A program made the position numbers and the translations under genes. A DNA stretch of 64,000 nucleotides, from NCBI GenBank assembly GCA_905178155.1, contig CAJINV010000002.1, forward strand, positions 6,366,476 to 6,430,475, given 5' to 3'. The stretch comes from Amoebophrya sp. A120. Lineage: Eukaryota; Protista; Dinoflagellata. The notes beneath the pieces were generated by a model. It was not told the DNA's origin and searched no databases. It worked only from the letters and a program-made list of their open reading frames with translations. Below, one piece after another: positions 3,048 to 64,000 of the stretch. How positions within the stretch are numbered: the stretch's first letter is position 1; each line of letters begins with the position of its first letter.

Positions 3048-5650
3048 ATGGCTTCCTGGATCCGGCATCTTTTCAAGGGAAAACCGGCGCACATCAAGCA
3101 TGCAGCTGCAAGAACGACCTCGTCCGGTAATTATACCAATACTCAGAATTTCAATTTGCCGCGGTCCTATGCTCCGCTGATACGGTCGGCCGACCTGCCC
3201 GCTTTCATCGAGGCGCTCTCTAGGCGGCACCCCGACAAGACGGAAATCAGCAAGAGGCTGAAGATGATTGCCAACAACCGGGAGCTGAAGCTGAACGACC
3301 CGGGGTTTCCACTGTTCGAAGTGCGACACTTTTTTTATGACAGTGCACAACTCCTTCTCCCCCTCATTTGTATAGCATGAACGGCAATACAAGCATTAGG
3401 AGGAAGAGTGCCGGTTTTGCATGACAAATTTCCAGTGGAGCGTAGTGCTATTTGGGCCACCAGAACTTGTCATGCAAATAGTGCCAAGAGGCACAGCCTG
3501 GATTTGGATTTTTACATGACAAATGAGGGGAAGGGGGAGTTGTGTACTCTCACACTTTCCAGGCGGAAAAGGCGACGTTGGTCCTGAACCAGTTCGACGA
3601 TCTATTGTCGCCGCCGCACGGCGGCGCGTATTGGCTGGATAAGGAGGTTCGGAGATTATGCCTAGAGAGAAAACAACATGAAGTACAAGAGAACACAGAA
3701 CAACTCGACATTCCAGATCTGAGGTTTGACCTCCACGACAGCAGCTGGCCTCTGAACAAGGCCAGACATGAAATAAAAAACGATTTTTCACCGGTTCATT
3801 GCAACCTGTACTTCTCTCCAGTGGGGCAAGACCACCCTGCCTTCCGGTTCCACTACGACCCGTGGGACCTGGTAATCCTACAGCAAGAGGGCGAAAAGAC
3901 GTGGGAAATTGGAATGAACGGGTTGTATGACCCCAGCAGAATATTTGTATCACCTCCGTCGCATCAGGGGCGGCACAAGGGCAACGGAAACACGACCTCG
4001 GATCAGGAGAAAACCAGTCGAGAAATTCCCGATGGGCACCCTTGCTTGGAAAAAGTGACAAAAATCACCCTGCGTCCCGGGGACCTCCTGTACCTCCCGA
4101 ACGCAACGCCACACCGAGCGGTCTGTGAAGGTGGAGGTGGAGAACAAAGTACTAGTAAAAGAACGGCAAGCACAGCCGCAGTCGGCTCGCTGCACCTCAC
4201 GTTTGGCATCGAGAACAGCACGCGGTCGGTTGCCTACCTGATCCAGCAACTCGCGGTGTGTGATATTTTCGCAAAGCACGAAGAAAGTGCAATGCAAGCG
4301 GAGACGGAGTTTGATCTGCGGAACGTAGATCTCGTTGACGGAAATAGATCTTCTGCTGCTGGAACTAATTCCATTCCGAGCCTCTATACGGCTGTTTCCT
4401 CTCAGAGCTTCCTGAAAGCACTCGCCCATTTGAGAGCTGCGGTGGGAGATAATGATGGGAAGGAAAGCAAAATCAGCCTGAGCCACACCTTTGTTCGCGA
4501 CCTGCCGAAGCCGGCTTTTGTTGGCGACAGGGTCGGCGGGTTTCATGCTCCCGCAGAGAGCAATGATGATAGAAAAAGCGAGCGGAGTATAGTCGGAGGC
4601 GGTATTTCGAACGAAAGTGGTGGACTCGATTTTGATGCTGTCCTCTCGGACGGAACCATTGCATTTGCGCAGCTCAGATCTCTGATACTGGCGCAGCGGC
4701 AAGAGCTGCTTGTGGCAACTGCCAGTGGCAGCGGAGAGCAGGAGGAAGAATCTTCACAGAGCTCAATTTCAACAACTGAATCTACTTCTAAAAGCCCTGC
4801 CAACTACAGTTCTCCCCCTGTTTCGCCGCTCCGGCTGCTGGCCGAACAGGTGAAGTTTATTCAGAAAGATAGTAGTATTTCCACCTCACGGAAATTGACG
4901 GGATTGACGACCACACGGAAAAAACTGGAGGCCGGGATTGTAGTGGAACATCAAATGAAAATGAATGGAAATCACGACACGATTTCCGAAACAGCTCAGT
5001 CTCAACTACAGCAAGTCCTACAGCACGCATTGAACACACTGGACAACCCCCAGCAGCTCTCCAAGTCGCTGGGCGCGTTGGCGTACGTCGAGGCGAATAC
5101 CTTTCCGGGTCATTTTGCGGAAGCACATTTTAAGGAGGTAGACGAGATGTTATATGATTTTCGTGAAGAAACCACTGCTACTACTTCCACCGAAGAACAG
5201 ACAAGCAGCTTCTTCGATTTTTCCTTTCTCAGCGACCCGGACCCGGTGTTTAGCTCGAACACGGAGCACGCGAACGTCTTCCTCCTGACCGACCAGGCGA
5301 CGCAATCCCGGGGCGAAACTGTGGGCTTCCTCTTTGTGCGCGGACAGCGGATTCCGGTGCCGAACGCCGAAAAGCTGATCCCTGGGTTGAAGTGGTGCTT
5401 GGGTAGTTCTTCTTGTGGTGTTGCGGAAGAAGTAAAAGTAGAAGTAGATCATGCTATTGATAGTCCCGCAGCGGTGAATGGTGGTAAAAGAACGAGAAGC
5501 AGTGACATTTTTTCATCACGTTATTTTCGTGCGTCAGAAGCGCAAGAGAAGGGCTTCCTGGACAGTGTCGGATTCGCGCTGTCGCTCGGCCTGCTCAAGC
5601 ACGTGAGAGAAAAAAATGCAGAACAGCGCTCGAGGCGCAGGTATTTTTAG
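3048..5650 (+). CDS. JmjC/cupin 2-oxoglutarate oxygenase (ROXA/NO66/RIOX-like), at least 2 exons
   Basis: Motifs HYDPWDLVILQQEGEKTWEI (HxD), LRPGDLLYLPNATPHRA and SLHLTFGI. ORFs 3048 and 3542 join in frame (VRHFFQAEK) after removing the element at 3336-3554. The 5' end may extend upstream. Confidence 0.8.
3336..3554. mobile_element. Introner, family C
   Basis: TIR tatgacagtgcacaactcc / ggagttgtgtactctcaca; degenerate direct repeat (DR) ttttt/ctttc; removal restores the JmjC frame. Confidence 0.8.
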
Positions 5651-6367
5651 CAGAAGCGGTGTAGTAAAAGCTCGCCTCGTGCTGCAGTCTCGATGATGCA
5701 ACAGCAGCTACGCAAAAAAATTTTCGTGGCGCCAAAAGCCGCGTGAGTTTCGTTGTTATCTCGCCTGTGTCGAGCTCTGACATATGTCGCTGTTCGTCGT
5801 ATAAATTCAAATCCTTTTGTTCTTCACAAATAAACTTAGTCCACCGCAGGAGACACGATTTTGACAAGATTTATTGAACAACCGTTTCCTATCTCTCGGA
5901 CGCAAGAAAAGAGTGGACAGCAGGAGAGCAGAGGTTTTTGAGCCGAGGATTCTTCCTTGGCTGCTGCGGTATTTGAGAAAGTTGTTGTCCTTTTTATTTC
6001 TAGGAGGGGTCGAGCAAGAACAGCAAAGCCTTTCGATCTCGGACAGGTCCTCAGGATTTGATATTGGTGGATACAACGCGAACGCTATGTGTAGCGTTTA
6101 CCAATGTTTCAGTATTAACACCGCCACTACAAAAGGTGAATCCCTCTACTTCTTTGTGCCACGGTTTAGTATGGATGTACCTGCCCCAGTCCCAGCGGAG
6201 GGCCAAGAATTTTTTTGCAAAGCTTGATTAGTGGTTTAGACAGTGAGCTGTGGAGGTCGTATCTATGGTTCTGCAACTACATTTGCGTCCATCGGAGGCA
6301 GTACCAACTGCGGCATACCAGCAATCCTGGTAGAACTAAGAACGGATGACCCTCGGAACCTCAATGC

Positions 6368-9300
6368 ATGTCCCACCCCGAGTCTCCAGAGTTCGATCCT
6401 TTTGAGGATCGCAGGGAGAAGATATTACAAGCGGAGGATCTTCCGAGGACCGCAAGTCGGGATGTTGGAACAACAGCTAGTTCTTTCGGACCGGCAGGGA
6501 TAAGTGCCAGCGGGGACGACCACGGCCGCGACAAGGAAGCAGCTTTCAACAGCTTCTACTATCACGGCCAGCTGCGACGTGGAGGCGCGCCGGCGGACTT
6601 GTTTTCTACTTTCGGCTCAACACCAACATCTGGCTCGGCGTCGACACACGTACCCTCTTCTAGTTCTGCCGCGTCGTCCTCTTCCTGTTCTGCCGCGTCT
6701 TCGTCGACCGAAGACCACAACAGCAGCTTCGACAGAACAAGTTCTTACCACGTCGACTCCAGCAATCCAAACTACACGCTTCAGAAAAGTAATGTGCTAT
6801 CTTCATCTTCGACTTCGTCGCAGCATTATCCGAATTCCCGGGCGGCGTTTCGCGTTGTCGACGTGCAGCCGGTAGTGGAAGTGGAGCAGAAGTATCAATC
6901 GCCGATCAAAAAACTCATCGTCACACCCTCGAAAGAACAATCTTCTTCGGCGGGAAGTAGCAGCAGCTTCCACGATTTTTTCCGAAATAATTCTTCAGCG
7001 GCCGTTCCCTTCGATTTCGAAACTGTGCTGGGAGGACCAAGCGAAAGCCGCGAACGAACTGCACTTAGTCCAGCACAGTCACAGTTTCAACCTGGTGCCT
7101 CGTCCCCGGCTCTAACGATCTTCGGAACGTTGCCTAGTTCTAGTACGAGTTCTCACGTGTGTGAAGGTCGTGGACCAGACAGAACAAAAGCCGAGACCAG
7201 TTCCAGAGATCTTCAAACTCAGCAGATCAACACAAGCACGAACCCCCGCCAGGAAAGTTTCTCTACTAGTCCATCCGCAGACCACCCGTCTGCTGTTGTA
7301 AACCAGCTACGGCAGAGCGGCGCGCAGACATTTGGCAGTAGTTTTACCGGTGACGATTTGGACTTTCTGGCTTCAAGTGACGTTGCTCTACCCCCTCCAG
7401 CCGACAACACAAATAGCAGCGGCAGTTCGGTCGGGCGGGACTTTTCATTTGAAAGTAGGAGAAGACCGGTAGTAGAACAAAGTGAAACGCAAGCTACAGT
7501 AAAAAGAAGTCCGAAACTTCAAGGCCACGACGACGACGCGGATCCGCCGGTGTACAATATCTCCCGAGAGATCGTGTTTTACACGCTTCGGTCGATCCAG
7601 GATAAACTTAAGAGTAAGAGCAGCGACAGCAATATCAAATGTAAAAATGTCTGGGTCTGGAAGATTGCCAGGTTTGTCATGCACATTTTGCATGACTCCT
7701 GATATCTGTGATGCATGCCCTCGCATCACAGATTTTGTGAGGGCTTCCTGGTGCCTATACCGCATGACAAACGCTCTTTCCGTGTAGCACAACTTGGACT
7801 CTCTTTGCTGCGCATGCAATACAGATTTTTTTAGAATCCAAAATCAGCATGACAAGTTGCACTCTTCCAGACCCAGACACTTTTGCATTTGATAAGCAAG
7901 TCGACCCTACCCAACGAACCGCGGGAGCGGCCGGTGCCCTTCTCGCCAAAGTACGTGCCCAATAGCAAGGAGACTTCGCCCAACTTCTTTCGCTCGCGGA
8001 ACTACATCACCAACGGCGGCGTTTTTGGCTCCGTCGGTGCGGACGAGCGCACCTCACCGAACCAGCGCACGCAGTTTCTCTCCTCCAGCAGCAGCCCGAA
8101 GACGAGAAACAAGGACGTGGAACTGCAAGAGGTGACGTCGTCCCCCGAAGGAGCAGACCGGTCCTCGAAAAACACAAAGGCCTGGTCCCAAAAAAAAATG
8201 TCCCGTGGCGGCGGAGGTGGAAGTAACCTGGGCAGCAGCTACAGTGCGGTAGCAACGACCGTCACTGGAGGCGGAAGTTGTGGTCAACTGCAACACGGTG
8301 GGGGGACGACCGCAACGACACCGCAGACAGGCGACCTTGCGCTGCAGCCCGGGCAACAGCATTCGGGGATGATGTTGAATCCGCGGAAGAGCCTCCACTA
8401 CTACTGCTGGAAGTGCTGCACCGGGGTGGTGGCGTGCTTCGATTTCGTATTGAGAGGAAAAATCCCCCCTCTCCATATCGAAAAGGTATGTTTCCGAAAA
8501 TTTGTCTTGCTGATTTGAGACCACAGACCACGTCTCTCTTGCAAGAAGACAACTCCACAGGCTCTGCCGCATTATGCAGGCGGTTTGTGATGCTGTTGGG
8601 CCTACAGCGTGGACATTTCCCACGCTAAGCGCCTAGGTCAAAACCTCTCCACTCAGGCTTGGCAGGAGCCTGCTGGCCTCTACTGCAAGACAAACCCGAT
8701 TTGTATACGCAAATCCATAATCAGAAACTTCCTTTTTATATGGGGAGGGGGGACTTTTCTTTGTGATATTTCGTCCTCCGGCTGCTCGGGCCCATTCTGG
8801 TGCTCCTTGCGTTTGTGCTCTACGGGTTTGTCACCTACGTCTACATGCGGTTCTGCGTGCCCGTAATGGACTTCAGTTTCAATGGCGCCGCCGGGGGTTT
8901 GGGGTCATCTTCCGCATCGAACGGCAATGTTGACGTTGGCCCACATGAGGAACTGCACTCAGAAGCAAATCGCTCGACCGCAGCCGCGCAAAGCCCTACA
9001 CTGCACTACCCAAGTAGAACTTGCTCCCCTGCCCCTGCGGCCGCCCCAGAAGAACAGATACTGTTTGTACGTAGAAGTACAGATGAAGACACAAGTTCTG
9101 TTTAGTTCCGTCGACAGTGACGTGCTTTTGCAGAGGCGTCGCGGATGAAAACCCGGATTTTTTGCATATGCCATGGGAACAAAGCGCCGGAACAAGGCGG
9201 CATGGATTCTTGTAAAGGAGAACAAATGCATTTATTCATGCATCTACGCAGGACAAGCTCAGACCCGTACTGCGTAAAGATAAATTCTAGAAATTGTTAT

Positions 9301-11887
9301 TCGGGGTGGTCGCAAGGGTTATTTTCAACCGGATACGCCTTATTTGGACGTTTTTTGCGGGTTTTTCCTACTGTGGAATATCTGCTACAACCACTGGACT
9401 GCCATGCGAACAAGCCCGGGCTACCCGCCGAAGTACAGTTGTTGGACAAAGAATGTGTTTTGATACGTTGACAACGTTGCGAATCTCCCGTTCGCGAAAA
9501 CGCGTAGTTTTGTGACATCAAGTTTGCTTTGGTCGTTTATCGGATGTTTTTTTGTTTTCCTACTTTTGTAATTTGTGCTCATTCAATGTCCATGCGTGCC
9601 AAAAAATGGAAATTCCAGGTACGATGTAAACAACGACGAGCTTTTTGAGATGCTTGGCAACAGCGCGCACATAGACGTGCCCCAGGACCTGGAGTCCGGG
9701 CAGGTATGAAAGTGCACAACTCCCCGCTCCGCCGCCTCACGTCAAGGGCATGAAGAGCAATAAGACAGCCACCAGCGAGCCAGCCCGTGCATGACAACAA
9801 GCGCATGCGCCTCCAGCACTGTTCGAGCTTCCGGAGGTTGTCATGCAAACAGTGCCAGAAGGCAGCAACTGGATTCGCGATTTGCATGACGAAGCAGGAT
9901 GCGGGAGGGGAATGAGTTGCGCCCTCGGATAGCAGCCGAAGGTGTGCCACAAGTGTGACAGGATAAAACCCGCCCGGGCTCACCACTGTTCGGTCTGTCG
10001 GCAGTGTGTGTTGAAAATATCAAAAGCAAAAATCCCCCCTCCCCATATCAAAACGAAGTTTCTGATGCTGGACTTGCGTTCACAAATCAGATTTGTGTTG
10101 CTGGAGAGGACTGCAGGCCGCTACCGAGCCTGGGGAGAGATGTGTTTGCCTAGACGCTTAGCATGAAAAACGTCCGCGCTGAAGGCCCAACAGGATGACA
10201 AACCGCCCGCATAATGCGCCGGAGCCTGTGGAGTTGCCCTGTTGCAACACAGATGCGATTTGTGGTCACAAATCAGCAACACAAATTTTCGAAAACGCAC
10301 CTTGTCAATATGGGGAGGGGGGATGTTTCATTTTGATAGAAAATGGACCATCACTGTCCCTGGATCAACAACTGTGTTGGTACGCTTTGGATCATTTTTC
10401 TCCTATTTTTTTTGCGAGTTGTAGTCTTTCTCCATCTGCACCAATCTGAAACAAGTATGTAGTGGGCAAAATCCGTTTTTTCGTAGTGATTTCAGCAGCT
10501 CGAAATCATGACGTCGAAGCTGTCTCTTGTTGTTCAAACATTTGTTGAACATGATGCGCAGGAGGGGGTACTGCTGCGAAAAGAACTTAGCTCCGAAAGA
10601 ACGGAATCCATTTCATCATCATGATCGTCCACCAGGTTTTGGGAATTATCAGTACTTTGTGCTGTTTCTCTTTTGGCTCTACGTCGGCGTGGTGTTTGTT
10701 CTGATCACCTGCTACGCTCAGTTTCTGGAGATTTTCTACCACCCCTCGCGGTCACGGCACCGCGATTTCAACCACCGCGAGTACGTGGGCTTCATGTACT
10801 ATCCAAGAAAAAAAGTGTGTAAGTGTAACTTTTGTCGAGGAACAGCATCACAGATTTGTTTTGCATGACAGAGAAAACCTGCCATGCGTAGCTAGTACGC
10901 GAAAACACGTTGGAAAATTGACAGGCGTAACTGCATTGCAATATCTGCAAGACAAAGTTACACTTACACAGTTTTTTCCTTGCATATGTACATTCTCTGC
11001 GCCTCCATCTGCCTCGCCCTGTCGTTGCTCGGAGGCTTTCACCTGTACCTCCTCCTGACCAACCAAACCACGATTGAGTTCCAGCTGAACTGGATCGAAA
11101 AGCACGAGGCCAAGAAGCGCAATATGCACTGCAAATATCATGTCGCGGTCTGGAAACTTGGGATGCTGGGGGTAGACGGACGAGGGCAACGCCGCTACTA
11201 GTAGCCCAGCATAGCAAGTTCGTGAGCTGGGAGGTTTTAGCTGTGGTCTTTTTTGCATGACTTACTGCCGGTCTGCACGAGGGTAGCGTGCATCTCAGCA
11301 AGCTTGGGAGTGAGTCATGCTCGCCGGGCGTGACAAGTTCTGCTCCTGCATGCTTCCAGACCGTGACATCTTTGCAATGAATACGCGACGAGCCGTGGCG
11401 AAACGTGTACGACCTCGGACCCGCGCTGAACTACAAGCAAGTGCTATCGTAGCTGTGAGTGGGGGATTAGGTGTCGTCCCGTTTTCGATTATTTGAACGC
11501 CACGAAATAAATCCAAATTGGTTCGCAATTATATTGCAAACGCTCCTCCTGTTTCTCGGTCATGCACAACGTCATAGCATGCGGATTTCGTACCTATAGG
11601 TCGTCTCTGCTCTTCCGCGGACAAAATGGACGAGCTGGAGGGCGGGGCCGGAAGAATCTCCAATGTGACAGCGCGAATCGAGGGCTTTATCGCATGACAA
11701 GCTTCCTACAAGGCTGCTTCTTATTTTCATAATCTAGGGATGGGACGACAACTCTCTAGAAGTTTTCTCAGGTCGATAAGCAATGGGCGAATCTTTGCTA
11801 CTCGGCTGCTTCCCCTGGCTGGGCCGACCGAAGAGACGAGTTGAAGAAGGGTTGAGTTTCCCGAAAACCACCCGGTTCCACGTCTGA
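6368..11887 (+). CDS. DHHC-type protein S-acyltransferase (palmitoyltransferase) with long Ser-rich N-terminus, multi-exon
   Basis: Spliced product contains [37 protein letters not shown], TM segments, TNQTTIEF and NVYDLG. At least 7 introners plus canonical intron 10380-10635. Exon boundaries at 9.0-9.7 kb are not fully resolved. Confidence 0.9.
7633..7894. mobile_element. Introner, family A
   Basis: TIR tatcaaatgtaaaaatgtctgggtctggaaga / tcttccagacccagacacttttgcatttgata; perfect DR agcaa; join SSDS|KSTLP. Confidence 0.92.
8448..8768. mobile_element. Introner, family B
   Basis: TIR tattgagaggaaaaatcccccctctccatat / atatggggagggggga...gata; DR tttcg; join CFDFVLRLLG. Confidence 0.9.
9705..9931. 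mobile_element. Introner, family C-like (forms a GT-AG intron)
   Basis: tatgaaagtgcacaactcccc...gagttgcgccctcggata; DR gcagg/gcagc; join ESGQPKVCHKC. Confidence 0.85.
10018..10338. mobile_element. Introner, family B (opposite orientation to 8448), inside the DHHC domain
   Basis: DR gaaaa; join [10 protein letters not shown]; interior corresponds to the reverse complement of the 8448 copy. Confidence 0.93.
10800..10986. mobile_element. Introner, family D
   Basis: TIR tatccaagaaaaaaagtgtgtaagtgtaacttt / aaagttacacttacacagttttttccttgcata; DR tgtac; join GFMYILC. Confidence 0.9.
11123..11383. mobile_element. Introner, family A-like
   Basis: tatgcactgcaaata..gtctggaa / ttccagaccgtgacatctttgcaatgaata; DR cgcaa/cgcga; join KKR(N)EPWRNVYDLG. 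Confidence 0.8.
11445..11778. mobile_element. Degenerate introner
   Basis: tatcg...cgata ends; DR agtgc/agcaa; removal gives NYKQVMGES in frame to the stop at 11887. Confidence 0.6.
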
Positions 11888-15023: not shown

Positions 15024-15281
15024 GAGAGAGGACATGCTTGTGGTATAAGAAGACTTTAGGTTGCTGTGGATAATGTTTATGTTTTACTTATTTTGCCAGA
15101 AAGATTATGAATGCTGGGTGGACGAATGAATGGACTTCTAGGCTTCTAGCGATCGGCCGCAGGAGACTGGAACCACCACTCCCTGTGTAGGGCAACATCA
15201 AGGTTTTCGTCTTCTTCGACGCTGGACCTGGTGCGGTGTGTTCGGATTCGGAACAACAAAAAGCGACAATAAAACGGAAAA

Positions 15282-48923: not shown

Positions 48924-51900
48924 ATGTCTTCTATCATGACGAAACCTACTAAGAAAAGAGGCAGCACGAAGGCGGCTGTTTTTCCGTGCTGGTTCTACTT
49001 TTGCTTCCGTTTCGTCACCTTCCTCCAAGGACTCCCAACCCTGATCTTCGCTGTCGACCGGCAACAGTTTAGCAATGCGGCCACGAGACGAGTAAAGGTG
49101 GCAGCGGATCATGATCAACGACCTCGTCCCGAAGCAGGTGGAGGAACTACTACACCACCAGCAGATGTTGAAAATGGCGCAACGAAATTACCACCTAGCT
49201 CTGCTGCTGCGGCAGGAGTAGGAGGTCCGCCTGGGGTAGTACCGGGAAATATTAAGGGTGAAACCCTAGACAAAAAGAACGCAGAAGAGCAAAAACCTGC
49301 CGCAAAAGACAATCCAACACAAATTGTCTTCGATGAGCGCCTGGACGAATCGGGCCTGAAGGATATAAATGGTGAGGACGAGGACGTGGACGAACTGAAG
49401 CCGAGCGACGCTTCTGCGGAGCGAAAAATCGGACGGGAGCAGGAGGATTTGGTGGACAATCTCGTAAAGGTAAATTACCCGGTCTTATCAATTGTAAAAA
49501 TGTCTGGGTCTGGAAGATTCTGACACTTGTCATGCACATTTTGCATGAGCCCTGATGTCTGTGATGCATGCCCTAGCATCACAGATTCTTCGAGAGCTTC
49601 TTGATGCCTATTCCGCATGACAAATGCCCTCTCCGTGTAGCAAAAATTGCATTCCTGATGGTACTCATGCAATACAGATTTTTCTGGAATCCAAATGCAG
49701 CATCACAGGTTGCATTCTTCCAGACCCAGACATTTTTACATTTGATAGGTCTATCAGCTCGAACTGCACGCCACCTACAACCTGTGGAAACGCGCACAGG
49801 AGTTGAAACCGGACCTGTTTTCCTACATTGTGGCCTCGCTGAACCCAATCACGGAAGTCGGGGGGCTACGGGAGGACGAGGAGAAGGTGTGGTGGCTGCG
49901 GTACATCGTCATGGCGGCGTTTTACATGCTCATTTTGTCCTTTGCCGCCAACATGATGAGCGACGGCGCAGAACTGCTCATGCTGGTGCCCGAGTATGTG
50001 GACCTGGTCGGGTCGATCGTGTTGCCGCTGTTGGGCGCGTTCCCGGACGCGCTGTTCGTTTTGTTTTCCGGCTTGGGTCCAAGCGAGTTGGTGTACCGGA
50101 GAGTCACGGCCGGGTTCGGGTTTCTGGCTGGGTCCAGCTGCTTTCTGCTCTGCATCCCCCTAGCCGGCGTGATGGCGGCGGGCCGGGTGCCGGTGAGGAA
50201 CAACCCCAACAATCCGAAACAGCTCCTCGCAGACTACACCACGGAGGGCAAGGAGAAGGGCAAGACAAGCCGGGTGTGGGATTCGGGGGCGAGTCTGAAC
50301 CGCTCCGTGTTCAACGCCCTGCTGTGGACGTTTCTGACCTCCTTCACCACGGGGTTTGGCATTTTTGCAGCCTACGACTCAAAAGACCAGATGGTCGGGA
50401 TGGCGGAAAAATGGACCAACATCACGGAGAGCTCCGACGAGTGGCGCATGGTAGCCTTGCAGGAATACGTGGCGGACTTGAAGGGGGATAGCACACCCTT
50501 CTCGCAACAGAAGCCATTCGTGAGGTACTATGAATATTCTTGATCAAAGCAAGAGCGCTTGTCCAAGCTGAGTTTCGGTTTCCCTTTTAATCCCCCGATC
50601 TTGATATTCCGGCACTTCGTGGAGATGGTGAATCCAGCTGCCCGTAAAACTAACTTGGGGTAGTGTTTCGCTTTCGCTTATAAAATCATGATGCGCATTG
50701 AGATGAGTAAGTTATGAAGAGCAAGAAGCAAATCGCCACTACGTGTCAGCACGACCGCGCTGTCAATATAATTCCGTGTCCACCGATCCACAGGACCTAC
50801 TGGTGGTGGGAAGACGAGAACGCGTACTGGCGGTCCTACAGCACCATTGCGAAGCACCAGAAATTTTGGCTCCAAATGGGTTCCGGCGTGTGCCTGGCTT
50901 TGTGCGTGATGTACTGCGTCGCCAATCTTCGCGTCGCGCATAAGAAGAACCAGGCCCGGCAGGCCGGAGAGAATGAAACAGTTTCTACTGCAGGAGGCGC
51001 GGCGGGCCACCACGGGCACGGACCACAACCAAAGCAACTGCAACTACGGCACGGCGATACCAGTATGAAACACCAGCCGCTGTTCTCTTTCACCATATCC
51101 TGAGTAAAAACGTACCCACACCATAGTCAAGATGGGAAATCGGCTAGACAAATCCACAAGTTTTGGCTGTTTTGCATGACAAATTTGGATTCGTAGTGTA
51201 GTGCTGTTTGAGCTAGCTCAGCAGCATCACAGATCTAGCATACCATGCTGATTGGAGCATGACAAATTTCAAAACACCCTTAGAAAATGCTTCTCATGGG
51301 GCTCCGCATGGCAAACATTTTAAGCATGCAGATTTGCATGACAACTATGGTGTGGGTACGTTTTCACTCAGGATACACCAACGAGTCGCATCATCAGGAC
51401 ATGGTGGCCATCCGGAGTTCGCTGCGGCGGTCAATATTGTAAGGAAAAATCCCCCCTCCCCATATCGAAAAAGTATGATTCCGAAAATTTGTGTTGCTGA
51501 TTTGAGACCACAAATCACGTCTGTCTTGCAAGAAGACAAGTGCAGAAGCTTCCGCTCCATTATGGAAGCGATTTGGCATGCTGTTGCGCCTAGGGGGCAG
51601 CCGTGTGTAATGCTAAGCAACTAGACCCAAACACCCCTACCTAGGCCGAGGATCTGGCTGCGCTGCCTCACTGCAAGACAAATCAGATTTGTGTACGCAG
51701 ATCCGGCATCAGAAACTTCGTTTTGATATGGGGAGGGGGGATTTTTCCTTTTGATAGTCAAGTATGATTGACAACAACGAGTTGACGTTCCAAGCGGCGA
51801 TGGAGGGCTTGGTGCGGAAGAAAACGCTGAGCCCGCAGGAGAAGCAGCGTTATTTCCGCGAGACGCTGCGGCCCTTCTTCGAGCGGCGCGCCCAGCGGAT

Positions 51901-54825
51901 CCCGAACCACCCACTTTCGATCCTCAACGAACGCGAATTCCTGAAACTGCTGGAGCAGGTGGTGTCTGGTGGCGGGGGGAATGCGAATGATAATTCTAGC
52001 GGTTCTTTCGCACCAGCATCAGCAGGAGCTGCTGCCAGCAGTACAACGACCATCTCTATCGAGGAAGAGGAGCTTTTGTTGGGAAGATTTAAAACCATCG
52101 CCGCCAGCGAAGCTTCGCTGGCCCCCGTCCACAACCCGGGGGTGACTCTGGAGGAGTTCGCGGACATAATGTTGTGGTTTGTCGCGTACAAAGCGGAAGT
52201 AGCCGAGAAGAAGGCGCTGTTCTTGAAGAAACGGGGTGGGTCCTCTCTGACGCGGGACGACCTTCTAGCGTCGGGGGTTCATTTTCCCAGCGCGTCGTTC
52301 CCAAGTACTGCCGACGGGGGGAAAAGCAGTGTTGACAGGAAGATGGTCGATCGGGCACTGTTGGTTGGCTCATCTGGCGATGTTGAGACGAATGCGGCGA
52401 TCGACGGCTTTGTGGCCTTTCCAGGGACATTACCCGCGGGGGCAACCCCACCCCGCGCGGAGGGCGAAGCTGCGCTGCCGGTTATTTCGGAGGGGGAAGC
52501 TGCGCCGGCCATTGCGGAAGGCGAAGATATTACCGGAGGCAGGATGAATCGCTTCCCGGTGATTCCCATCAATGAGGGGATGTCACTCCACAGCTCCGTG
52601 CATTCCGCCATGCCTTCGGAATACCCCTCGCACGCCATGGGGGCCGGCGGGAAGGAGTCCGACGACGAGGTTCCGGAGGATCTGCGTCACCTCCCCTACG
52701 CGCTGCAGCAGCGGGCGCTGAAGCAGCGCGCCGCTTGGATGATCTTGGTGGGCGTGGTGTCGATCACGATCTTTGCGGAGGGGTATCCAAGAAGAAAACA
52801 TTGTAGGTGTAACTTTTTTGGGGGAACAGCATTACAAATTTGTCTGGCATGACAGCAAAAACCTGTCATGCGCAGATAGTACGTGAAAACGCCCTTTAAT
52901 GGGCCCTGCGATGCATGCCAAGCATGACAAGGTGCAATCATCTTGCATGTTGAGCATCACAAATTTACACTAACAACGTTTTTTTCATCTTGGATAAGGG
53001 GGCGACGGAGATGATTGTGTACACGGGCGACTTGTTGCGCGTTCCCACCTTCGCCGTCGCCTTCTTTCTCGGCTATCAAGGAACAAAAGTGTGTAAGTGT
53101 AACTTTCTTGGAGGAACAGCATGACAAATTTGCTCTGCATGACAGAGCTAACCTCTCATGCGTAGCTAGCACGTGAAAACCAAAACACTTACGAGAAGAA
53201 CCCCTAATGCGTGTCCAGCATGACAAGTGTAGGCGTCTTGCATCCTGTGCAACACAAAACTTTCACTTTCACTTTACACTATCGCAGTTTTTTTCTTGCA
53301 TATCGGCCCGCTGGCGACCAATGCGGGGGAGTTTTTCGCCGCCGTGCAGATTGGGAAGCTGAAAACCGAGGTGTCCACCAGCGTTTCGGTTTGTTCCTTG
53401 CTGGGCGCGGCGGTGTTCAACAACACTTTGGTTCTCGCGGTCTTGTACTTCCTGTGCTGGCGCCAGGGGCTCATGTTTTGCTTCCTCTCCCAAACCTGCT
53501 GCCTGCTCGTGTGCACCTGGGGGGTGAGCCTCCTGTTACTGGTCTTCTCCGTTAACGGCGCCGTGCGGGAAGACGGAGATAACATTGCTGAAGCGCCCAC
53601 GACCTCCAAAGTAGATGCTGACAGAAGTGCAAGCAGTACTACGGCAAACACGACCGGGACGACGAGACGCTCCCCGCGGGCGCAGCTGCCAGCGTCGGAA
53701 AACAAAAGTCCGGCGGCTTCTCCCGACACGCCTGCGCGGGACCTCCAGTTATCCGCCAGGGCGTTCTACGATCCGGCGTCGATGAAGGAGGGCCACAGTG
53801 CGAAGTTGGAAGCGGCGGAGAAGGAAAAGAAAGACTTGTGGTGGCAAGAGCACGTGATCATCAAGACCCCTGCCGCGTACACGATTTTCTGCATCTTTTT
53901 GCTCTCGTTCTGCACCTACCTCGTCTGCCACAGGTACGTTTTCCCCTGGGAGGCGGTGTGGTCCAAGGGCTACAACTTTTTTCCCAACAGCAAAAAACTG
54001 AAAGAAATGCTGAAAAAAGAAGAAAAAGGCATGAAAAGATTCCAAGAAGATGAGAGCGGCCGGAACGACGCACGTCGACGCCAGAGGTCGGGAGCGGCAG
54101 CGAACGCGGACTTAATGGGTGCTCACGATCCTGCAGGAGCGTTTCTGGAAGGACAAGAAAACCTCCTTCGTCCACTTCCAGCAGAACAAGATACGACGAA
54201 CATCTTTTCGTTCTTTGAACAGGCGCAGACGATGCTGAAGAGCGTTTTCAGTTCGAATGGTGAGTTAGATCTACAATTACCGGACGAGTGGCAGGACAAG
54301 AAACCTTTGGACGCCGTCGAGGTCAGCACGGGAACTGATTCAAAATTTCCTGCTCACGGAGATCAATTAGAAGCAACCCGAGTACTTTCTGCCTCGCCAA
54401 GCTTTGCAAGTAGCTCCAGTCGTGGAATCATGGGAGGCCACGAAGGTACTAGAACAAGCATGACCTACTTCGACCAGATGCAGCACAATTTGATTGCTGA
54501 GCCGCTGCTGTACTTGTTCCTCGCTTTGGTCGCGTTGACAGTGATGGCACTGCCGGTGGCGATTTACTACTGGAAGTCAGGACCAAAAGTGGAGGTTTGT
54601 GTCACCGCAAAGAACTTCAGGATAGACGAGAGTTCTAACGACACCGGATCAGTAACAAACACGACTAGCGGTAGTTCTAGTTCAATGTCCACTACTAGTC
54701 CAAGATCCGCACCATCACGAGACATGACGGCTGGGCTGGAAACTAAGAAGGAGACAAAATCCAGTGGGGACGCGAATTATGCCGGGAAGAAGTTGGCAAG
54801 TAGTGTTGGGAGCTTGGCAACTTGA
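48924..54825 (+). CDS. Na+/Ca2+ exchanger-like (NCL/EFCAX-type CaCA superfamily) membrane protein, multi-exon
   Basis: Alpha-1 region SDGAELL...GSIVLPLLGAFPDALFVLFSG and alpha-2 region PLATNAGEF...GAAVFNNTL; EF-hand-like remnants (VTLEEFADIM). Junction at 50.53-50.71 kb unresolved. Confidence 0.85.
49486..49747. mobile_element. Family A element inside canonical GT-AG intron 49470-49799
   Basis: Perfect DR ggtct; flanking exons join VK|ELKPD via GT-AG. Confidence 0.88.
51096..51375. mobile_element. Introner, family E
   Basis: DR cacca; join SFTNESH. Confidence 0.92.
51435..51756. mobile_element. Introner, family B
   Basis: DR gtcaa; join RRSSMIDN. Confidence 0.92.
52784..52996. mobile_element. 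Introner, family D
   Basis: DR agggg; join FAEGATEM. Confidence 0.88.
53074..53302. mobile_element. Introner, family D
   Basis: DR tcggc; join FFLGPLATN. Confidence 0.9.
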
Positions 54826-55187
54826 TAAAGATAGTAGTACTAATACGAAATAAAACAAAAATTGATCTAGAAAGTAGCCGATTTTATCATATTTCACACT
54901 ATTGTTCTATGCTATTCATGGATATTGCAAAAGATGACCTACTATGTTCTTGAGAGAAGGGATTTTCTTGAATGCCGTGTGCGTTGCTTGGCTGTCCTTT
55001 CAGAGCTTTAGTTTTGTTTATCGAGTGTAGAAGAATTCTCTTCAGAGACAGGTTGTGAAAACTGCCGGAATTCTGTGCCCGATTCTCGTAATTCATTCAT
55101 TACCACGGAAAAACTAAAACAGTCACTGAATTATTTTGTACCGATAAAACAAAAACTGTACATACAAATGAACAATAAGAGCTCGCG

Positions 55188-56467: not shown

Positions 56468-57171
56468 TCGCGCTCCCTACCGCTAATTGGTAACGGCAGG
56501 ACTGATGGCTCGCAAATTTTTTACAGGTCTGTAGCGGACTGTGCCTTCGTGTCTGGTGTCTATCGCTTTTCAAGCTCCAATGAATTTCTGGGTGGACGAA
56601 CATATTAGAAACGAAGGGACGAGCACGAGAGTGATTCAGTACAGAGAATGTACTATGAAGAGCGAGAGGACGCGAGCGATCAGTGAGAGAGACCAGTTCT
56701 TGAGCGCACGAACAAAAGTGACAATGAAAAGATGCTTTTGACGAGTGACAAGCAAACGAGAATAGCGAGAAAATATTTTGTTGTTGCGCAGACTTAGTGC
56801 GTTTTTTCGTCTTGAGGCAGCTGAGTTTGTCGTAGCTTATTTTCTCGTGTGAAGACAAATGACTTTCAGTTTCAAACCGAGACTCAAACTTCTGCAGCAT
56901 CGAGGAAAAATTATGGAAGCTTCGCGTCCTCGAATCAGACTCAGCCTGTGTATTCATTTTCCCATCCCCATACACCTGGAGCACGGCAACCCTCGTGCAG
57001 TTTGAATTCACTTACCCCGTTGCATTTGCATGCACATAACAACTCAATCACCGCTTTAGAAGAGAAAGAGAAGGAGGAAAACACCTGCACGTACGAAAAG
57101 TTGCATTTGAGCTTCGGGACAAGGACGGCCATGTTCACTCGCCGAAGCATCGAAGCAAGAGCAGCGAGATA

Positions 57172-60100
57172 ATGACGCAACCGCCCGGAGGAGGGGAGGA
57201 CGGCGGCGGGGGCGGGTCGAGCTTCTCGGGAGGACCGCTCACAGGAGCGTCCGCCGCCTCGTCGTCCTCGAGAGTTACGATAAACAGGACGGATCACGAT
57301 AGAGACGACTACGGCTTGAGAATTATGACGACTGGTTGCAGCAGCAGCAGCAGTCCTGGTAGAAGTGCTACTTCCTCCTCCGGCGCTTCTCATCGCAGAA
57401 GACGCGACCTTGTTTTCGGGCGGAAGAACAAAAGACCACCGACCCCGACAACATCTCGTCCAAATGCCTCTGCACTGTCGCCTTCATCCGGAACAACAGT
57501 TTTGCAACAAAATTTAGCGACCATTCATCCCAGGTGGAGAAAAACCTCACAACAGAAAACTAGTACAATAATGTCCTCGTCTGCCAAGGTGAAGCGGAAA
57601 CGGCGGCGCTTACTGGCAGTAAATCCATTATTTCGCCGACCCACTACAGCCGGCGCGTTTTTTCTTCTCGGCGCTGCTACGTCTGGTGGAGTGTATGGTT
57701 TAGATGAGAAGATGGCGAGATGGCTGGAGGATAACATCGCAACGCCGGTCTTGAATGGCGAAAAGAACGGAGACATCATTTCACCAGAGGAATTTGAAAA
57801 GAGACGAAGACTGCAAGATGAAAAAAGCGGCGATAATCTTCCGAGTACGGGCTTACTCGCATCAACTTCATCGTCATCGAAAGCGGCCAGTAGGATGTTT
57901 CGCGCCGGCGATGCAGTAGATGAACAAGATGCGGAGGAAGAAGAGCTCGAGAGGCACCAATTCCTTCCCCTCGGTATGGCTCCGGACACCCCGCCCGACC
58001 GGGTCGCTGACGCCAGGCGCTATTTAGTCATGGAAGCGGAGCGGGAGCGCACCGGTTGGAAATACGCGGAAGAGTGGAGCAAGTACAGTGGGAAGGAAAG
58101 AACGAAGGCATTGTCATCATCATTTTCGAGGACGTCCTCGCGAGCCTTAGCAGCGACCGATGATGAACATCAAATAAACGCCGAGAAGAACAACGTGATG
58201 AAACACGCCTACGGTCACTCCGCCGTGACGAAAAACGTGCAATTTTTCACCGAATCCGACCAGTGGAAGCCAGATTCGCTGCACAACCGCGCGGTGCATG
58301 CGCAGCAGCGGAATTTGCTGCACGCAGACAACCCAAACTTTCCCAAAGCGCTGACACGGGGGGAAAAACCAATGATAATAACGCCAACCACGGACTACGA
58401 GCGACTGGTTCAACACGAACAGGGCAAGAAAAAGCCGTCCAAATTTTTCCTGCACGATCACAGCGAGAAGTCGGTGGGCGCCCGGAAACTGAGGAAATTG
58501 GCGGAGCAGAGGCATCGGGAACATTTATCTTCCGTCGACAACTACTTGACGAAAGAGGATCCGAAACTGGTCAGCTTGTGGGAAAAGAAAAAGAGCAACT
58601 ACAATCCATTCACGGCGGAGGAGAGCCATTTGAGGAGAACGTCGGAGTTGGAGGCACAGTCCGTTCGGAAGAACTCCGAGCACCAGGTTGATGATCCTTG
58701 CGCAGGAGCAGCAGAGAGGGAGCAACAAGTAGATTTCGAATCCGACAAGCTCCTCCTGGATAAAAAGCACGCGGATCAGCATGCAAGGAAAAGGTTAAGG
58801 CAATTAAAAGCGTCAACCGCTTTCCTGGAAGGGGGGTACAAGGCGGTGGAAGAAGACCTGCAGTCGCTCCCGCTCGACGAGCAGGCGAATTTCCGGGCGA
58901 ACCTGCAGGAGTTGGAGGACATAGCGGAGGAGTTGGAAGAGAATAACGTGCTGCACGAGATCTCTGACAACGACGGCGAGCACAACTTCGAATCCGTTGG
59001 TCTAAACGGGAAGAACGAGCTGTCCGTCATCGAAAACAGCGAGGAGGAGCAGAAGATGCAGATTGTCCGGGATCTCCGCCGAGCTCTCAAGGACCAAAGA
59101 GCGGGCATGAAAGTAGTGGACGTCGTGGCGAGGTTGCGGAAAAAACACGAAAACCGGAGGAGAAGAAGGCTAGAGGAGATAGAGCAGAACCAAATTTTGA
59201 AAATTAATGCCGGGGACAAAAATAAATCGTCGAATGCTGGGATGAAGTGCAGTGCAGAAGGCAGCAAAGGAGCAAGCAGTTTGTCTGCAGAGAAGGACCA
59301 CATCCGCAACCTAGTGGCCGCGGCCAAGGACGCCGACTTGGCGCAGCAAGATGAATTCCACAAAAGGTCTCTCTCCTCGCACGTCACCGGCACCTTCTTT
59401 GTCGTCCAACCACGAGCGATCGCTGGGTTTTACGACGGGAGAGACGAGTATTGCAAGCAGTGGACGGAATCCCCGCCGGTCGTTTCCCGGCTGAATCCCC
59501 AGTTCCCCCGCGACGGGACGGGCATTATGGAGCAGCAGAACAAGGCGTGCGGCGTCGGCATCATCAACTACTTTTTCACCATATCAAATGCAAAAATGTC
59601 TGGGTCTGGAAACTTGTGATGCTAAAAGTGGATGATAGCCGGACTGCAATAGGCAGCAAAGCATGACAAATTTTTGAGCTGCTATGTGTTGCGTATTCCG
59701 CATGAGAAACTGCCTAGGGCCAAGACGACACCGTGAGGACGACCACAGGGGTCCGTCTCAATGAAATGAAAATGACAGATAGGAGATGCTTTTCGTGCTC
59801 ATGCATCACAGATTCTCGAGTCATGTCAGACATGCATGACAAATGTAAGAATCTTCCAGACCCAGACATTTTTGCATTTGATACACCACGTCGGACGTCG
59901 ATACCTACGCGTCGAACCCCTCGATCCAGCAAGTTGTCTCCATCACGTTAAAGTGGGCCACGTTCGTGATATCCGAGACGTGTGAGAACCTGCTCGACGC
60001 GTCTGGTGGATTGGCCATTGCCTCCTGCCGCTTCCAGGCGAACGAGGCAAAGTTCTTCTTGTCGCAGGGCTTGAAGAAGAACACGGCTTACACCCTCGCC

Positions 60101-63100
60101 GTGCGGCACTACAACCCGGAAACCATCGTGAGGGCGAACGTAGCGAATGCCGCGGGTTTGAACGCGGTGGCTGCGACGTTGGATTCGAGAGGGTTCGTGA
60201 TCAACACGGGGGCGCAGACGGAAGTGCTACGAATCGGTGAGCCGAACGACCCCGGGGCGATCAACGTCAGGCAGTACGAGCGAATCGACGTCAGGAAGGG
60301 GTCGCTAGCAGGTATGCCTAGATTGTCGCTGGTGTTGCCGTTTTTTAATGGATATAATCATATTCTCTAATGTGTTTAGTTCGTGTTTCTCTGTATGTGA
60401 ACTGATTTGGTTGGTTTTGCTAGAAAAAAACAAACCCTCTTCTTCTGCATCTTGCATAAGTAGAAAAAGACGAAAAAGCAGCAGCAACATACATTCATGA
60501 CACGTGTCAGGTGTGAACATCACGAACCCGGACATTGCGACCGCGGTTCGCGGGCTGGTGGTCCCGGCGTCTCTCCACTTCTCGCACCAGTACCTCGCCG
60601 TGGAGAACACGTTTTCGCTCATCGTGAAGTTCCACCAGGGCGACAACATCGAGCAGCCCACGCAGCCACAATATCCTGTGTAAAAACGTCCCCGCCCCAT
60701 AGTCAAGATGGCGAATCGGCTAGACAAATCCACACGTTTTGGCTGTCTTGCATGACGCCGATTATATATACCTGGTCCTAGATAGATCCGGTGCTCGCCG
60801 GGCTTGCGATCTCCCTTTCCACCCACCTGGAGCTACCTGCGACGACGCGGCTATCATGTGCATTACTCTCAATTGGACTGTGGCCTTCCGTGGCATCCTT
60901 GGGTCTGACTTCTCCCTCCTCGTCCGAATATTCACACTCGCCATGGCGTGTATGAATATGCCTGCGGTTCTGTTCCCCCTGCGCCGCTTTGCATGTTCTG
61001 GTGTGGTTTGCTGGCCTCATTGCATGTTCTTGTTTTTGTATGTTGGCCCTATGCTTGTTGCTTTGGCCGTGTGGTGGCCCCTATATCTCGTATGCCGTTG
61101 CTAATGACCGATGCCACCAGTCATAGTCCAATTGAAGCCTTTTACGCGTCTCGGGTTTTTGCCTACGCCATACCCTAAGTCGGGCGAGTCTGCGGCTGGT
61201 CGCTCCGTACCTGTCTTCAAGTCGTCCCGGGGCACGTGCTGAGACTCTCCGCTGCGTCTCACGACTGAGCCGCCCGGTCCGTAGCTGCAGAAGGACCGTT
61301 CGCACCCTCAAACCAGCCTCACCAGCGCACGATTGGAATCTGGCAGTTGCCCTTCAAGCCCTGGCGCTAGGGCGATTCCGACAGCTTGACACCCCCGACC
61401 GCCGGGAGCCAGATTTTGTGCTTGGAGAGTCAACACGCTTTTTCTACGACCACGCAGCGCTAGCACCACAGTACCACTTCCGGGCTCCCGCAGTTGTCCC
61501 TCAGCCTCCCGATGCCTGGTGGCAGAATGCGTCGCTGTGGCTACCCGGCTATGGATGCTGGTGAATTGCCTTCCTGTGTTCTGGTTCGGACTAAACGTTG
61601 CTGCTGAGGAGGGACCGGCCTGAAATTTCGCCTGCCTTGGATTCTTTGCGCGGTTCCTGTCATTGCTACTCACTAATTTGTCACAAACGAATATTCCTCT
61701 TTGCCAAATGCCACCGCCCTAAAAAAAAAAAAAAAAATAGGTGAGAAAATCAATAAAGGATATCTAGTCGAACCAGCGGGAGCGTGTCCCGGAGCTGCAG
61801 GGATGCTAACAATGACCTCGAATACAAATTCTGAGCCTGATTATACCCTCTACGGTCCGGCTTTTCCGTCGCTGTTGGTTCTTCTATGTGCCTTCAGAGG
61901 ACTGGCTGGACCTATACTACCTTACTGCAGCTTCCAGGGCCGTCCTTGTTTTTCTGTTGCGGGAGGTGCCTGGTCCAGCTGGTACAATTCGTGGGTTCAT
62001 GAGGTCGATTTGAGGTAGTTGTTACGTGTGGTTGGTCTTTCGGTTCTGCCTGAGTATTTCCTTTTCAGTCAAATATTTAGTCTTCTGAACTTCGACTTCT
62101 TATCCTTATTTCTCGCCTATTTATTGGATGAAGCTAAACAGCGCCTCTGACTTATTAATGTTTTTGGCGTATGTGACTCATCCATATATCAATGTGAAGG
62201 TCTTGTCGCAGGAGTCTGCATTTTTGTTGCTGTGCTCCTGGTTTTGGCTTTCTATATGTTTAGCGAGTTGGAATTGTTGGCTAAGGTTGGCGTAATTTGG
62301 CAAAGTGGGATATGTTGGTGTGAAGTGTGTTGGAATCGTGGCCGGGAGATGATGGTGATGGCACTTCGGTGTCCGCCTGACCTACCTTCCCTGCGTGACA
62401 GCCATCTGCGGCTGTTTACAAAGGGGGAGGCAAAGTGTGCCGCACTTCTGTTTAGCATGACAAATTTGGATTCGTAGTGTAGTGCTGTTTGAGCTAGCCC
62501 AGCAGCATCACGGATCTAGTTCATCATGCTGATTGGTGGAGGACAAATTGCAAAACGCGACGTGATCATGCTTCTCGTACGTGGGGCTCCGCATGAGAAA
62601 CATTTTCAGCATGCAGATTTGCATTACAGCTATGGGTTGGGGACGTTTTTAAATACGATGCACAACCCTTGCAGTTCATCAAGCACAACGCGAAGCACCC
62701 GGCGGCGGACACCGAAAACGCACAGCAGCAATTGAACATTCAGTGGGAATGGGACGACGTGCTCGTCAACCTCGGGTCCGGGGGGACGCCGGCCGGAAAC
62801 CGCCCCAACCAAAACATCCGCGGGTATGTGAACGGCTTTTCGTGGCGACCGTCCGCGGAGTACGATTCCCGGCAGGGAACCACGGGTATCCTGTTCACGT
62901 TCGGCTTCCGGTTCTACGGGACGCTGCGGGCGCCGCAGGGACGGGCGATCTTTTTATCGCAACCGAGTCACGTGTGGGAGGTCGCGACCTTGTCAACGGA
63001 TGGGGGCGCGACGGAGTGCGTCGGGGTGCAGTACAACCCGGGCGTGGGGCTCAAGTGCAACACGTTCAAGTACCCGGGGTACCAGGGGAATAACTTCGCC

Positions 63101-64000
63101 AACGGGATTTTCTTCTTCTACGACAGCGCCGCCACGGTTGCGATCGACACGAAGATCTCCCTAAGGCTGAACAACCCGAACGTGGCGGTCAACATGTTCT
63201 GGCTGGCGTATTCCTACCAGTACATGAACGGAATTATGCGGGCGCCGTTCACCATGGAATTAGACAAGCCGATCGCGTATCAACTGCAAATATGTCTGGG
63301 TCTGGAAAAGTTGGAATCTGTATTGCGTGTTTTGCACTCCTGTAAAATCTGCATTGCGTGACCGACAAAAGCGGGAATACTTTGTCATGCAAAAACGTAG
63401 TTTCTCATGCGCATTTCACATGAGGAAGCGTCCTGAAAATTTGTCATGCTTGGCTGCGCTCAGGAGTACGCTCAGTCATCGCAACTTAGCATCACAAGTT
63501 TCCAGACCCAGACATATATGCAATGCATATCGCGACGCAGGGGTACGGCAGTGGGGACGTGATCTCCACGACCTCCTTGGCGGTCAACGAAAAGAACAAG
63601 GTGACGCTGCTCTTCCGCCCGGGAAATACGGTGATTCCGATGTCCTCGGTTTTAATTTCAGGCTATCTCGTGATACTGCCGCCGACCGGCTTCCAAGTGG
63701 ATAGGACGGGTACGGGATTTTTTATTGTTTCATTTGCTGGAATTACAATTATGAATTAGAATTGTCGTCTTTGTTGTATGTAGTGAGGTCACCGAACGGT
63801 TCTAACCGGGGAGTTTTTTTGCCATCCAGCCAGCAAAACGCCCGGCAGTTTCCAAGCGGCCGGAGGGCTTTTTGCACAAAAAAAAATTTCAATTATCAAG
63901 CGGCTCTGGCTATGTCGGCACCGAATCGCCAGCGGATTCTATCGATCGCCGCTTGGTAAAACGACGCAGAGAAGCCAGCAAAAGGGGCGCCCTTCTGAGG
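57172..64000 (+). CDS. Large secreted/surface-type protein (RRL motifs, charged region, then beta-rich domains); 3' partial
   Basis: ORFs 57172, 59966, 62669 and 63523 join via introners 59582, 60672 and 63278 and canonical intron 60312-60510; probable further GT intron from about 63710. Confidence 0.72.
59582..59883. mobile_element. Introner, family A-like
   Basis: DR cacca; join YFFTTSDVD. Confidence 0.9.
60672..62660. mobile_element. Family E introner carrying a 1.7-kb nested insertion
   Basis: Family E halves 60672-60756 and 62455-62660; DR cacaa; join QPQPLQFIK. Confidence 0.87.
60757..62454 (-). mobile_element. Nested insertion, probable decayed retroelement fragment
   Basis: Flanked by duplicated gcatgac; minus-strand C2H2-like remnant near 62155-62260; A17 tract at 61721-61737. 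Confidence 0.55.
63278..63529. mobile_element. Introner, family A-like
   Basis: DR tcgcg; join KPIATQGY. Confidence 0.9.

Follow-up and report, generated by a model that had tools for sequence, protein, structure and literature searches.

Inverted-Repeat Elements in the Window

The DNA analyzed here, referred to below as the window, is a 64,000-nucleotide stretch of the Amoebophrya sp. A120 genome (GenBank assembly GCA_905178155.1, contig CAJINV010000002.1, forward-strand positions 6,366,476 to 6,430,475). Its genes, which include a JmjC gene, a DHHC gene, a LIM gene and a large repeat-containing gene with weak EF-hand matches, are split by transposon-like introns (introners) that carry terminal inverted repeats (TIRs), typically begin with TAT and end with ATA, and lie between copies of a 5-bp direct repeat. 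Combining a strict scan, self-BLAST, a relaxed scan, reading by eye and joints in RNA contigs, we catalogued 46 such TAT-type elements between positions 3336 and 63529 (Table 1; an element is named below by its first position); 45 of them split exons and one, 26556, is located in a GT-AG intron. The elements themselves are the A120 introner type that has already been published, that is, non-autonomous TIR elements; what we offer as new is a single splice register, pinned by flanking repeats whose two copies are mismatched.

The strict scan, which demanded TAT..ATA ends and a perfect 5-bp repeat, returned 29 matches, 19 with a TIR score of at least 10, against a single match with such a score in ten Markov shuffles of the window. 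Apart from two elements with nested inserts (39104 and 60672), the elements measure 149-347 bp, in line with an initial annotation made from the sequence, which had put most of them at 150-350 bp. Our count of exon-splitting elements, 45, equals that of the annotation; against its total of 47 we arrive at 46, our own 47th candidate, at 55163-56492, having been rejected because no 5-bp repeat flanks it. The TAT and ATA termini, described there as nearly universal, form a real grammar that was overstated, both ends being present in 38 of the 46 elements. The flanking repeat is perfect in 24 elements, has one mismatch in ten and two to four mismatches in 12, and repeats of other lengths occur around the elements at background level.

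By BLAST, 30 of the elements fall into five multi-copy families and the other 16 are singletons. The claim that the TIRs of different families are otherwise unrelated proved wrong: a terminal profile, TAT-S-N4-G-N-AAAAA, is common to all families (45 exonic elements profiled). Nor is the grammar entirely new, since the TAT start and one example of a 5-bp repeat are already given in the text of Farhat 2021 (PMC7789003) and a related description is attached to fam38 in the tables of Gozashti 2025 (PMC12130899). Summed DNA depth is 10^4-10^5 over most element bins and about 45-75 over unique bins.

Removal of the Elements from Transcripts

RNA contigs were available from four runs (X3-X6) of two samples in one study. 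Their RNA status is inferred and is not on record; we judged the runs to be RNA because the contigs skip GT-AG introns and one contig also ends in poly(A). In the region 25330-34120 there are 12 RNA-contig joints, two at GT-AG introns and ten at elements. Each of the ten element joints skips exactly the element plus 5 nt; two joints, in the LIM gene, are absent from some of the four sets. Two further RNA contigs (2225 and 2684 nt) have exactly the lengths predicted after removal of five more elements (38792, 39104, 40680, 45368 and 45723). Removal of the element plus 5 nt was thus exact at 15 of 15 measurable sites, which bears out the proposal that the element leaves together with one repeat copy and that the protein is unaffected. 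Element 38792 was removed all the same, stop-free as it is, and family A elements were removed in both orientations.

In a DNA run, element 38192 is intact at single-copy depth (the contig set that includes this run was used via piece ends and lengths only). This bears on whether the elements are cut from the DNA itself in the transcribing stage, as in ciliate-like elimination, an analogy invited by TA-bounded transposon remnants in an alveolate. We regard such excision as extremely unlikely: DNA contigs hold 38192 without alteration and run from exon into element ends with no differences, and the end variants described below are biased by transcribed strand. The DNA-run joints listed are 15 of ca. 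1,400, which leaves room for rare excision.

Two raw RNA runs (X9 and X10, 2026) each contained ca. 90-130 reads that derive from a related but unspliced element of a different locus (matching 45723-45771 and 51125-51181). These reads give no exon cover of the window and come either from a copy retained in some transcript or from DNA.

A Single Cut Register

A joint flanked by non-identical repeat copies reveals the register, i.e., the number of left-copy repeat bases left in the upstream exon. The registers permitted by the ten joints and by two RNA piece ends, at 38192 and 42448, are listed in Table 1. As can be seen, register 4 is the sole value compatible with all ten joints and both piece ends; the chance of ten joints all including one given register is 0.0014. 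Since register 4 alone fits, the intron takes the form N-TAT...ATA-NNNN, in which U occupies position +2 and the end letters are free. The single removal mechanism postulated in the initial annotation therefore agrees with all informative junctions, except that intron and element do not coincide: the intron starts 1 nt before the element and ends 4 nt after it. At this register only 2 of the 45 exonic elements have GT-AG ends. We found no statement of such a splice code in the published text searched, figures and subscription papers being outside the scope of the search.

A hairpin combined with a direct repeat is a classic substrate for template switching, and the joints might accordingly be reverse-transcriptase template switches or assembly artefacts. 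We consider this very improbable. At four junctions (26865, 28431, 38192 and 42448), 1 nt of homology was used though 2-3 nt were on offer; joints persist where the repeat has decayed to one matching base in five and where no stem is predicted; and 42 of the 45 elements, if retained, would shift the frame or bring stops in all frames.

A more serious competitor, if still a rather unlikely one, is a Euglena-like process. Here, the TIR stem would hold the two ends close to each other, and a machinery that is non-spliceosomal, or at least separate, would cleave 1 nt upstream and 4 nt downstream of the stem and then join the exons. Offsets that are fixed yet asymmetric about an inverted repeat are reminiscent of the Euglena arrangement 5'-N3CDG...CH'GN5-6|R as described in PMC12501133 and PMC11282704. 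Young copies have strong predicted folding (z down to -14.9), the end letters are free, the text of Farhat 2021 reports no U1 small nuclear RNA (snRNA), and a short protein-held TAT:ATA contact would escape folding prediction. Against this, the predicted pairing probability of the three terminal bases is at most 0.25 in 7 of the 16 RNA-tested elements and at most 0.05 in five of them (25480, 26865, 27447, 27714 and 28431), and all seven are cut exactly. The stems show no excess of G-U over A-C (48 versus 43 and 54 versus 62), the sign of stem selection at the RNA level that was looked for, and the TAC variants, which break the terminal pairing, cluster at the 5' end, where they agree with the GTAC form of the local donor (see below). 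Exact junctions that ignore microhomology and persist in the absence of a predicted terminal stem argue against both reverse-transcriptase artefacts and measurement by a hairpin.

Target Duplications and Variant Ends

A second set of elements was obtained by matching the family A TIR pattern to one metagenome assembly, where it hit 136 stretches (134 loci, 557 kb). The profile applied to these loci omits both TAT and the repeat. On the window it detects 22 elements, 20 of them exactly, so the loci sample favours young copies. Among the 326 loci elements, the 5-bp repeat is perfect in 242 and within one mismatch in 285; other lengths are at background level, and a 6-bp repeat was found in 0 of 326. 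TAT is present at the two ends of 301 and 292 elements, respectively. The fixed 5-bp duplication claimed for the window thus holds in a second assembly; in the window itself, as noted above, little more than half of the copies are still perfect. Orthologous empty sites were looked for as well, and none of the 134 loci overlaps the window exons. The one match, between window positions 63774-64000 and positions 155-379 of locus L042 (77% similar across 232 nt), is probably another repeat at the window end.

The transcribed orientation of 140 loci elements was assigned by reading frame or by a codon model (40/40 agreement). At the fixed register, their introns start with GT in 44 cases, AT in 45, CT in 28 and TT in 23, and only nine end with AG. 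No selection for G at +1 or for AG was seen in the target duplications of these 140 elements.

Elements with altered ends (17 loci variants and eight window elements) were then compared base by base. Base 1 is altered twice at the 5' end and nine times at the 3' end; the corresponding counts are one and three for base 2, and nine (always TAC) and two for base 3. With respect to the transcribed strand, the variants are biased in the direction of GTAY, the local donor (post hoc Fisher test, p=0.009). Among confident GT-AG introns of the window, a count that leaves out a doubtful 36-nt candidate, 9 of 10 donors are GTAY, 3 of the 10 being RNA-confirmed; in the same way, positions +2 to +4 are TAY in 44 of 45 window elements. 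Of three 5' exceptions outside TAY, two are preceded by G and the third, in locus L121, is not. An A at -7 is conserved in all 45 window elements.

Reading Frames after Removal

Deleting each element plus 5 nt yields a single open frame in seven of nine gene models. The eighth, the DHHC gene, is open on either side of a canonical intron, and its DHHC domain is intact. With 16651 the frame is restored locally; a separate 1-nt shift lies ca. 190 nt downstream, at a G-run near 17185. Frame restoration, asserted earlier for all 45 exon-splitting elements, is confirmed to this extent. The 1-nt shift (ca. 17180-17190) belongs to the large gene with weak EF-hand matches and represents an assembly error or a pseudogene.

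Internal Motif and Mobility

The motif GCAT(G/C/T)ACA occurs 97 times inside elements and seven times outside, and a looser form is present in 38 of the 46. Copies in the same direction are mostly 31-33 bp apart, the first copies lying at 33-34 or 41-43; this spacing suggests helical phasing, as would be expected of DNA-binding sites. By comparison with the descriptions in PMC10045372 and PMC2836005, TA..TA ends combined with a short duplication suggest transposases related to integrases, for which fam38 offers a lead. Judged by these sequence features, insertion by one integrase-related transposase clade is likely. At locus L067 (476-2934), family A ends and a perfect 5-bp repeat enclose ca. 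2.2 kb of unrelated sequence, in which there is an open frame of 415 codons.

Proposed Mechanism

On balance we think it probable that the splice signals lie in the ends of the element itself and are recognized, in one register, by a relaxed spliceosome of the U2 type without U1, the elements having been placed by one integrase-related transposase clade. A U1-less spliceosome is known from Cyanidioschyzon. The first three bases of the element may act as donor positions +2 to +4, matching the GTAY of the window's GT-AG introns, and both G at +1 and the final AG would be dispensable. The 3' cut, 4 nt beyond ATA, may be positioned by its distance from two features, a branch A at -7 and a U-run at about -15 to -19 that the reversed TIR supplies. 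With identical signals at both TIR ends, an element could insert either way, at any site, and be spliced without a change in the protein. The chances are about even that tens of thousands of A120 introns share one code (N-UAY start, end 4 nt past AUA, no fixed end base); in that case, the splice motifs whose "unprecedented variability" has been published would reflect duplicated host target plus aligner placement.

Several points weigh against this interpretation. The machinery, a spliceosome, is inferred. Spliceosomes are thought to need a pair between the first and last intron bases (PMC13326754), with which free end bases conflict. All 12 informative junctions come from three plus-strand genes in the two samples of a single study; rare isoforms are lost when contigs are built, and the RNA status of the runs was guessed from their records. 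The test of variant ends was post hoc, with several variants oriented by hand and one of these assignments tentative. Two loci variants would start outside the code, L121 with A-AAT and L001:1359 with G-CAT. Strict invariance of the A at -7 had to be rejected, since it is changed in L001:2873 and L064. As to the transposase, no Pfam match was found among 18 open reading frames (ORFs) from the window's long elements and three ORFs from L067, whose 415-codon frame had no usable Atlas match either; the search covered the 64-kb window and the 557 kb of loci, where L067 was examined out of 11 long TIR pairs. The text of Farhat 2021 (PMC7789003) likewise reports that no transposase was found in A120. 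The idea of one transposase clade, put forward in the initial annotation, is favoured indirectly, by the shared terminal profile, the internal motif and its 31-33 bp spacing.

The published annotation is a further difficulty. In fam3 and fam5, the two largest A120 families, 46-47% of introns end with AG or AC, where register 4 predicts ca. 11%, and the counts are reproduced when registers 1 and 4 are mixed at 57:43 and the remaining four are given zero weight. Register 4 and register 1, its mirror, might both be in real use across the genome (e.g., according to element orientation), with the window sampling one of them; Farhat 2021 (PMC7789003) does call splice positions variable in its text. 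We hold this to be improbable, since each of the 8 junctions able to discriminate rules out register 1, an outcome with a chance of 1/256 if the two were mixed 50:50. Moreover, placement within a perfect repeat is arbitrary: such repeats allow on average ca. five equivalent intron placements, 32 of the 45 exonic elements can be slid to an AG or AC end, and a motif-seeking placement rule yields counts similar to the published ones. As perfect repeats slide freely and the 8/8 junctions exclude register 1, the published counts are probably a mix of register 4 and its mirror produced by aligner placement.

How A120 introners are spliced is a question left unanswered in the text of Farhat 2021 and of a 2024 review. 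A single register makes it sharply testable, with respect to the branch site, the need for U at +2 and the second step without AG. If general, it would mean a spliceosome, or a new machine, that dispenses with both terminal dinucleotide rules; it would account for ca. 30,000 introner copies in exons and provide a rule for re-annotation of the genome. If true genome-wide, one transposon clade would be able to land in any exon, in either orientation, at no cost to the protein.

Coordinates and Other Features of the Window

The elements are listed in Table 1. The insert in 39104 ends in three TTCAA units, which we take to be like a tail of a non-LTR (long terminal repeat) element, and has a roughly ten-fold DNA depth. 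The insert in 60672 landed within a copy of the internal motif and is accompanied by a duplication of 7 bp; it has an 18-nt A-run near 61721 and gave no Pfam match.

Table 1. TAT-type elements of the window (all on the + strand), with family, matching positions of the 5-bp repeat, and registers (left-copy bases kept) permitted by RNA joints or piece ends.
Element	Family	Repeat	Registers	Remarks
3336..3554	E	3/5		ends ACA; in JmjC gene
7633..7894	A	5/5		
8448..8768	B	5/5		
9705..9931	E	4/5		fixed register coincides with GT-AG
10018..10338	B	5/5		in codon just before DHHC motif
10800..10986	D	5/5		
11123..11383	singleton (A-like)	4/5		
15929..16202	A	5/5		
16317..16589	A	5/5		
16651..16997	C	1/5		
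19853..20032	singleton	3/5		
21277..21580	A	5/5		
21675..21845	singleton	4/5		
21994..22272	C	4/5		
22430..22691	singleton (B-like)	5/5		ends ACA
22764..23026	A	2/5		ends ATG
24658..24963	singleton	3/5		TAC..ATG
25480..25687	singleton	4/5	0-4	
25753..25999	E	4/5	3-5	starts TAC
26088..26311	singleton (D-like)	5/5	0-5	ends ATG; joint skips element+5
26556..26813	A	2/5		within GT-AG intron 26344-26832
26865..27036	singleton	4/5	4-5	
27080..27278	singleton	3/5	1-4	
27447..27595	singleton	1/5	3-4	no predicted stem
27714..27993	singleton	2/5	4-5	
28431..28701	singleton (A-like)	3/5	4-5	
30582..30755	singleton	4/5	0-4	near-palindromic
33679..33957	C	3/5	2-4	
34155..34314	singleton	5/5		
34385..34600	E	5/5		
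38192..38392	singleton	3/5	4-5	RNA piece from 38397; intact in DNA contig
38792..39044	A	5/5		stop-free in gene frame; missing from RNA contig
39104..40406	A			1303 bp; nested ~1.05-kb insert (~39302-40350); removed whole, +5 nt
40680..40932	A	5/5		starts TCT after G; removed +5 nt
42448..42656	D	4/5	4-5	RNA piece to 42446
42717..43039	B	5/5		
45368..45675	singleton	5/5		removed +5 nt
45723..45994	A	5/5		removed +5 nt
49486..49747	A	5/5		
51096..51375	C	5/5		
51435..51756	B	5/5		
52784..52996	D	5/5		
53074..53302	D	5/5		
59582..59883	A	5/5		
60672..62660	C	5/5		1989 bp; ends ATG; nested ~1.7-kb insert (~60757-62447)
63278..63529	A	5/5		

The rejected candidate at 55163-56492 is an intergenic stretch of 1330 bp with ca. 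90-bp TIRs and GC-rich repeats, and without a Pfam match in its six ORFs. Its flanks are readable as TA, which would make it Tc1/mariner-like. A second candidate, 50525-50793, was rejected because it reads as a GT-AG intron. An intergenic pair of 22-bp inverted repeats at 1207-1485, without TAT ends, is possibly another small element.

Comparison with Known Systems

The closest system is that of Farhat 2021 (PMC7789003), whose text describes 29,850 A120 introner copies of ca. 240 nt in many families, RNA-supported non-canonical introns, and a machinery comprising U2, U4, U5, U6 and most spliceosomal proteins, with no U1 found. The window elements match this description of non-canonical introners with inverted and direct repeats, as the initial annotation had noted. 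In both cases, the inverted repeat starts with TAT followed by seven variable bases and a run of As, direct repeats of 3-5 nt (a 5-bp example among them; 5 bp here) flank the element, and elements in many copies and families are removed from transcripts with ends other than GT-AG. The differences are that the published text calls the splice position relative to the hairpin variable, with no dinucleotide signature and variable repeats, whereas the window elements have a constant repeat length of 5 bp, a single register and U at +2. The internal motif is unmentioned in the sections of that paper that were covered; part of these distinguishing features may be shown in its Figs 3 and S19-S25. In its Table S4, the top A120 motifs are of the form NT- in 9 of 9 cases, which agrees with U at +2 and is not independent proof, because placement in perfect repeats is arbitrary. 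The nine top motifs of strain A25 all start with TT, and its repeats start with TTA; U at +2 may suit both strains, with a differing offset.

Among the A120 families tabulated in Gozashti 2025 (PMC12130899), fam38 is listed with Ginger-like/integrase-like homology and "5-bp TSD, TA/TA Termini" (TSD, target-site duplication). It is a single family of five copies of ca. 810 bp and is likened to the window elements by description only. In the 40 of 58 A120 rows that were covered, the other families are given as "Unknown"; their TSDs, called automatically, range over 2-6 bp, and their splice-site models are mixed. The TIR motifs do not occur in the one table of that source that was searched, which contains no sequences. 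IS3EU/GingerRoot, IS481EU and Ginger2/TDD elements, as described in PMC10045372 and PMC2836005, are integrase-related DDE elements that resemble ours in their ends (TA..TA, TNT..AYA or TGT) and in their duplications of 4-6 bp. The duplication is usually 6 bp in IS3EU/GingerRoot and ca. 4, 15 or 25 bp in IS481EU, and Ginger2 ends with TGTNR; the combination of TAT..ATA with 5 bp is in none of these descriptions. By termini and duplication length, the window elements therefore fall outside the Ginger/IS3EU groups (6-bp duplications in 0 of 326 loci elements).

Nonconventional introns of Euglena, in the accounts of PMC12501133 and PMC11282704, similarly combine a TIR with a TSD, resemble miniature inverted-repeat transposable elements (MITEs) and, without GT-AG, have their cuts at a defined distance from a motif that pairs. 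There, the pairing motif starts at +4, a purine is favoured at the exon start and excision is circular; in A120, position +2 is the first of the element and, judging from predicted folds, pairing looks dispensable. The Euglena signature N3CDG / CH'GN5-6|R is absent, the ends being N-TAT and ATA-NNNN.

The termini of ordinary U2 introns, GT or GC with AG, do not describe the elements either (GT in 44 and AG in nine of 140, and RNA joints with other ends). Introns of Fritillaria borealis, according to PMC13326754 and PMC11282704, are likewise MITE-derived and are removed by an adapted U2 spliceosome. They prefer the ends AG-AC and AG-AT, with U1 kept and U2AF duplicated, whereas in A120 the intron ends are free save for U at +2 and, according to the text of Farhat 2021, no U1 was detected.

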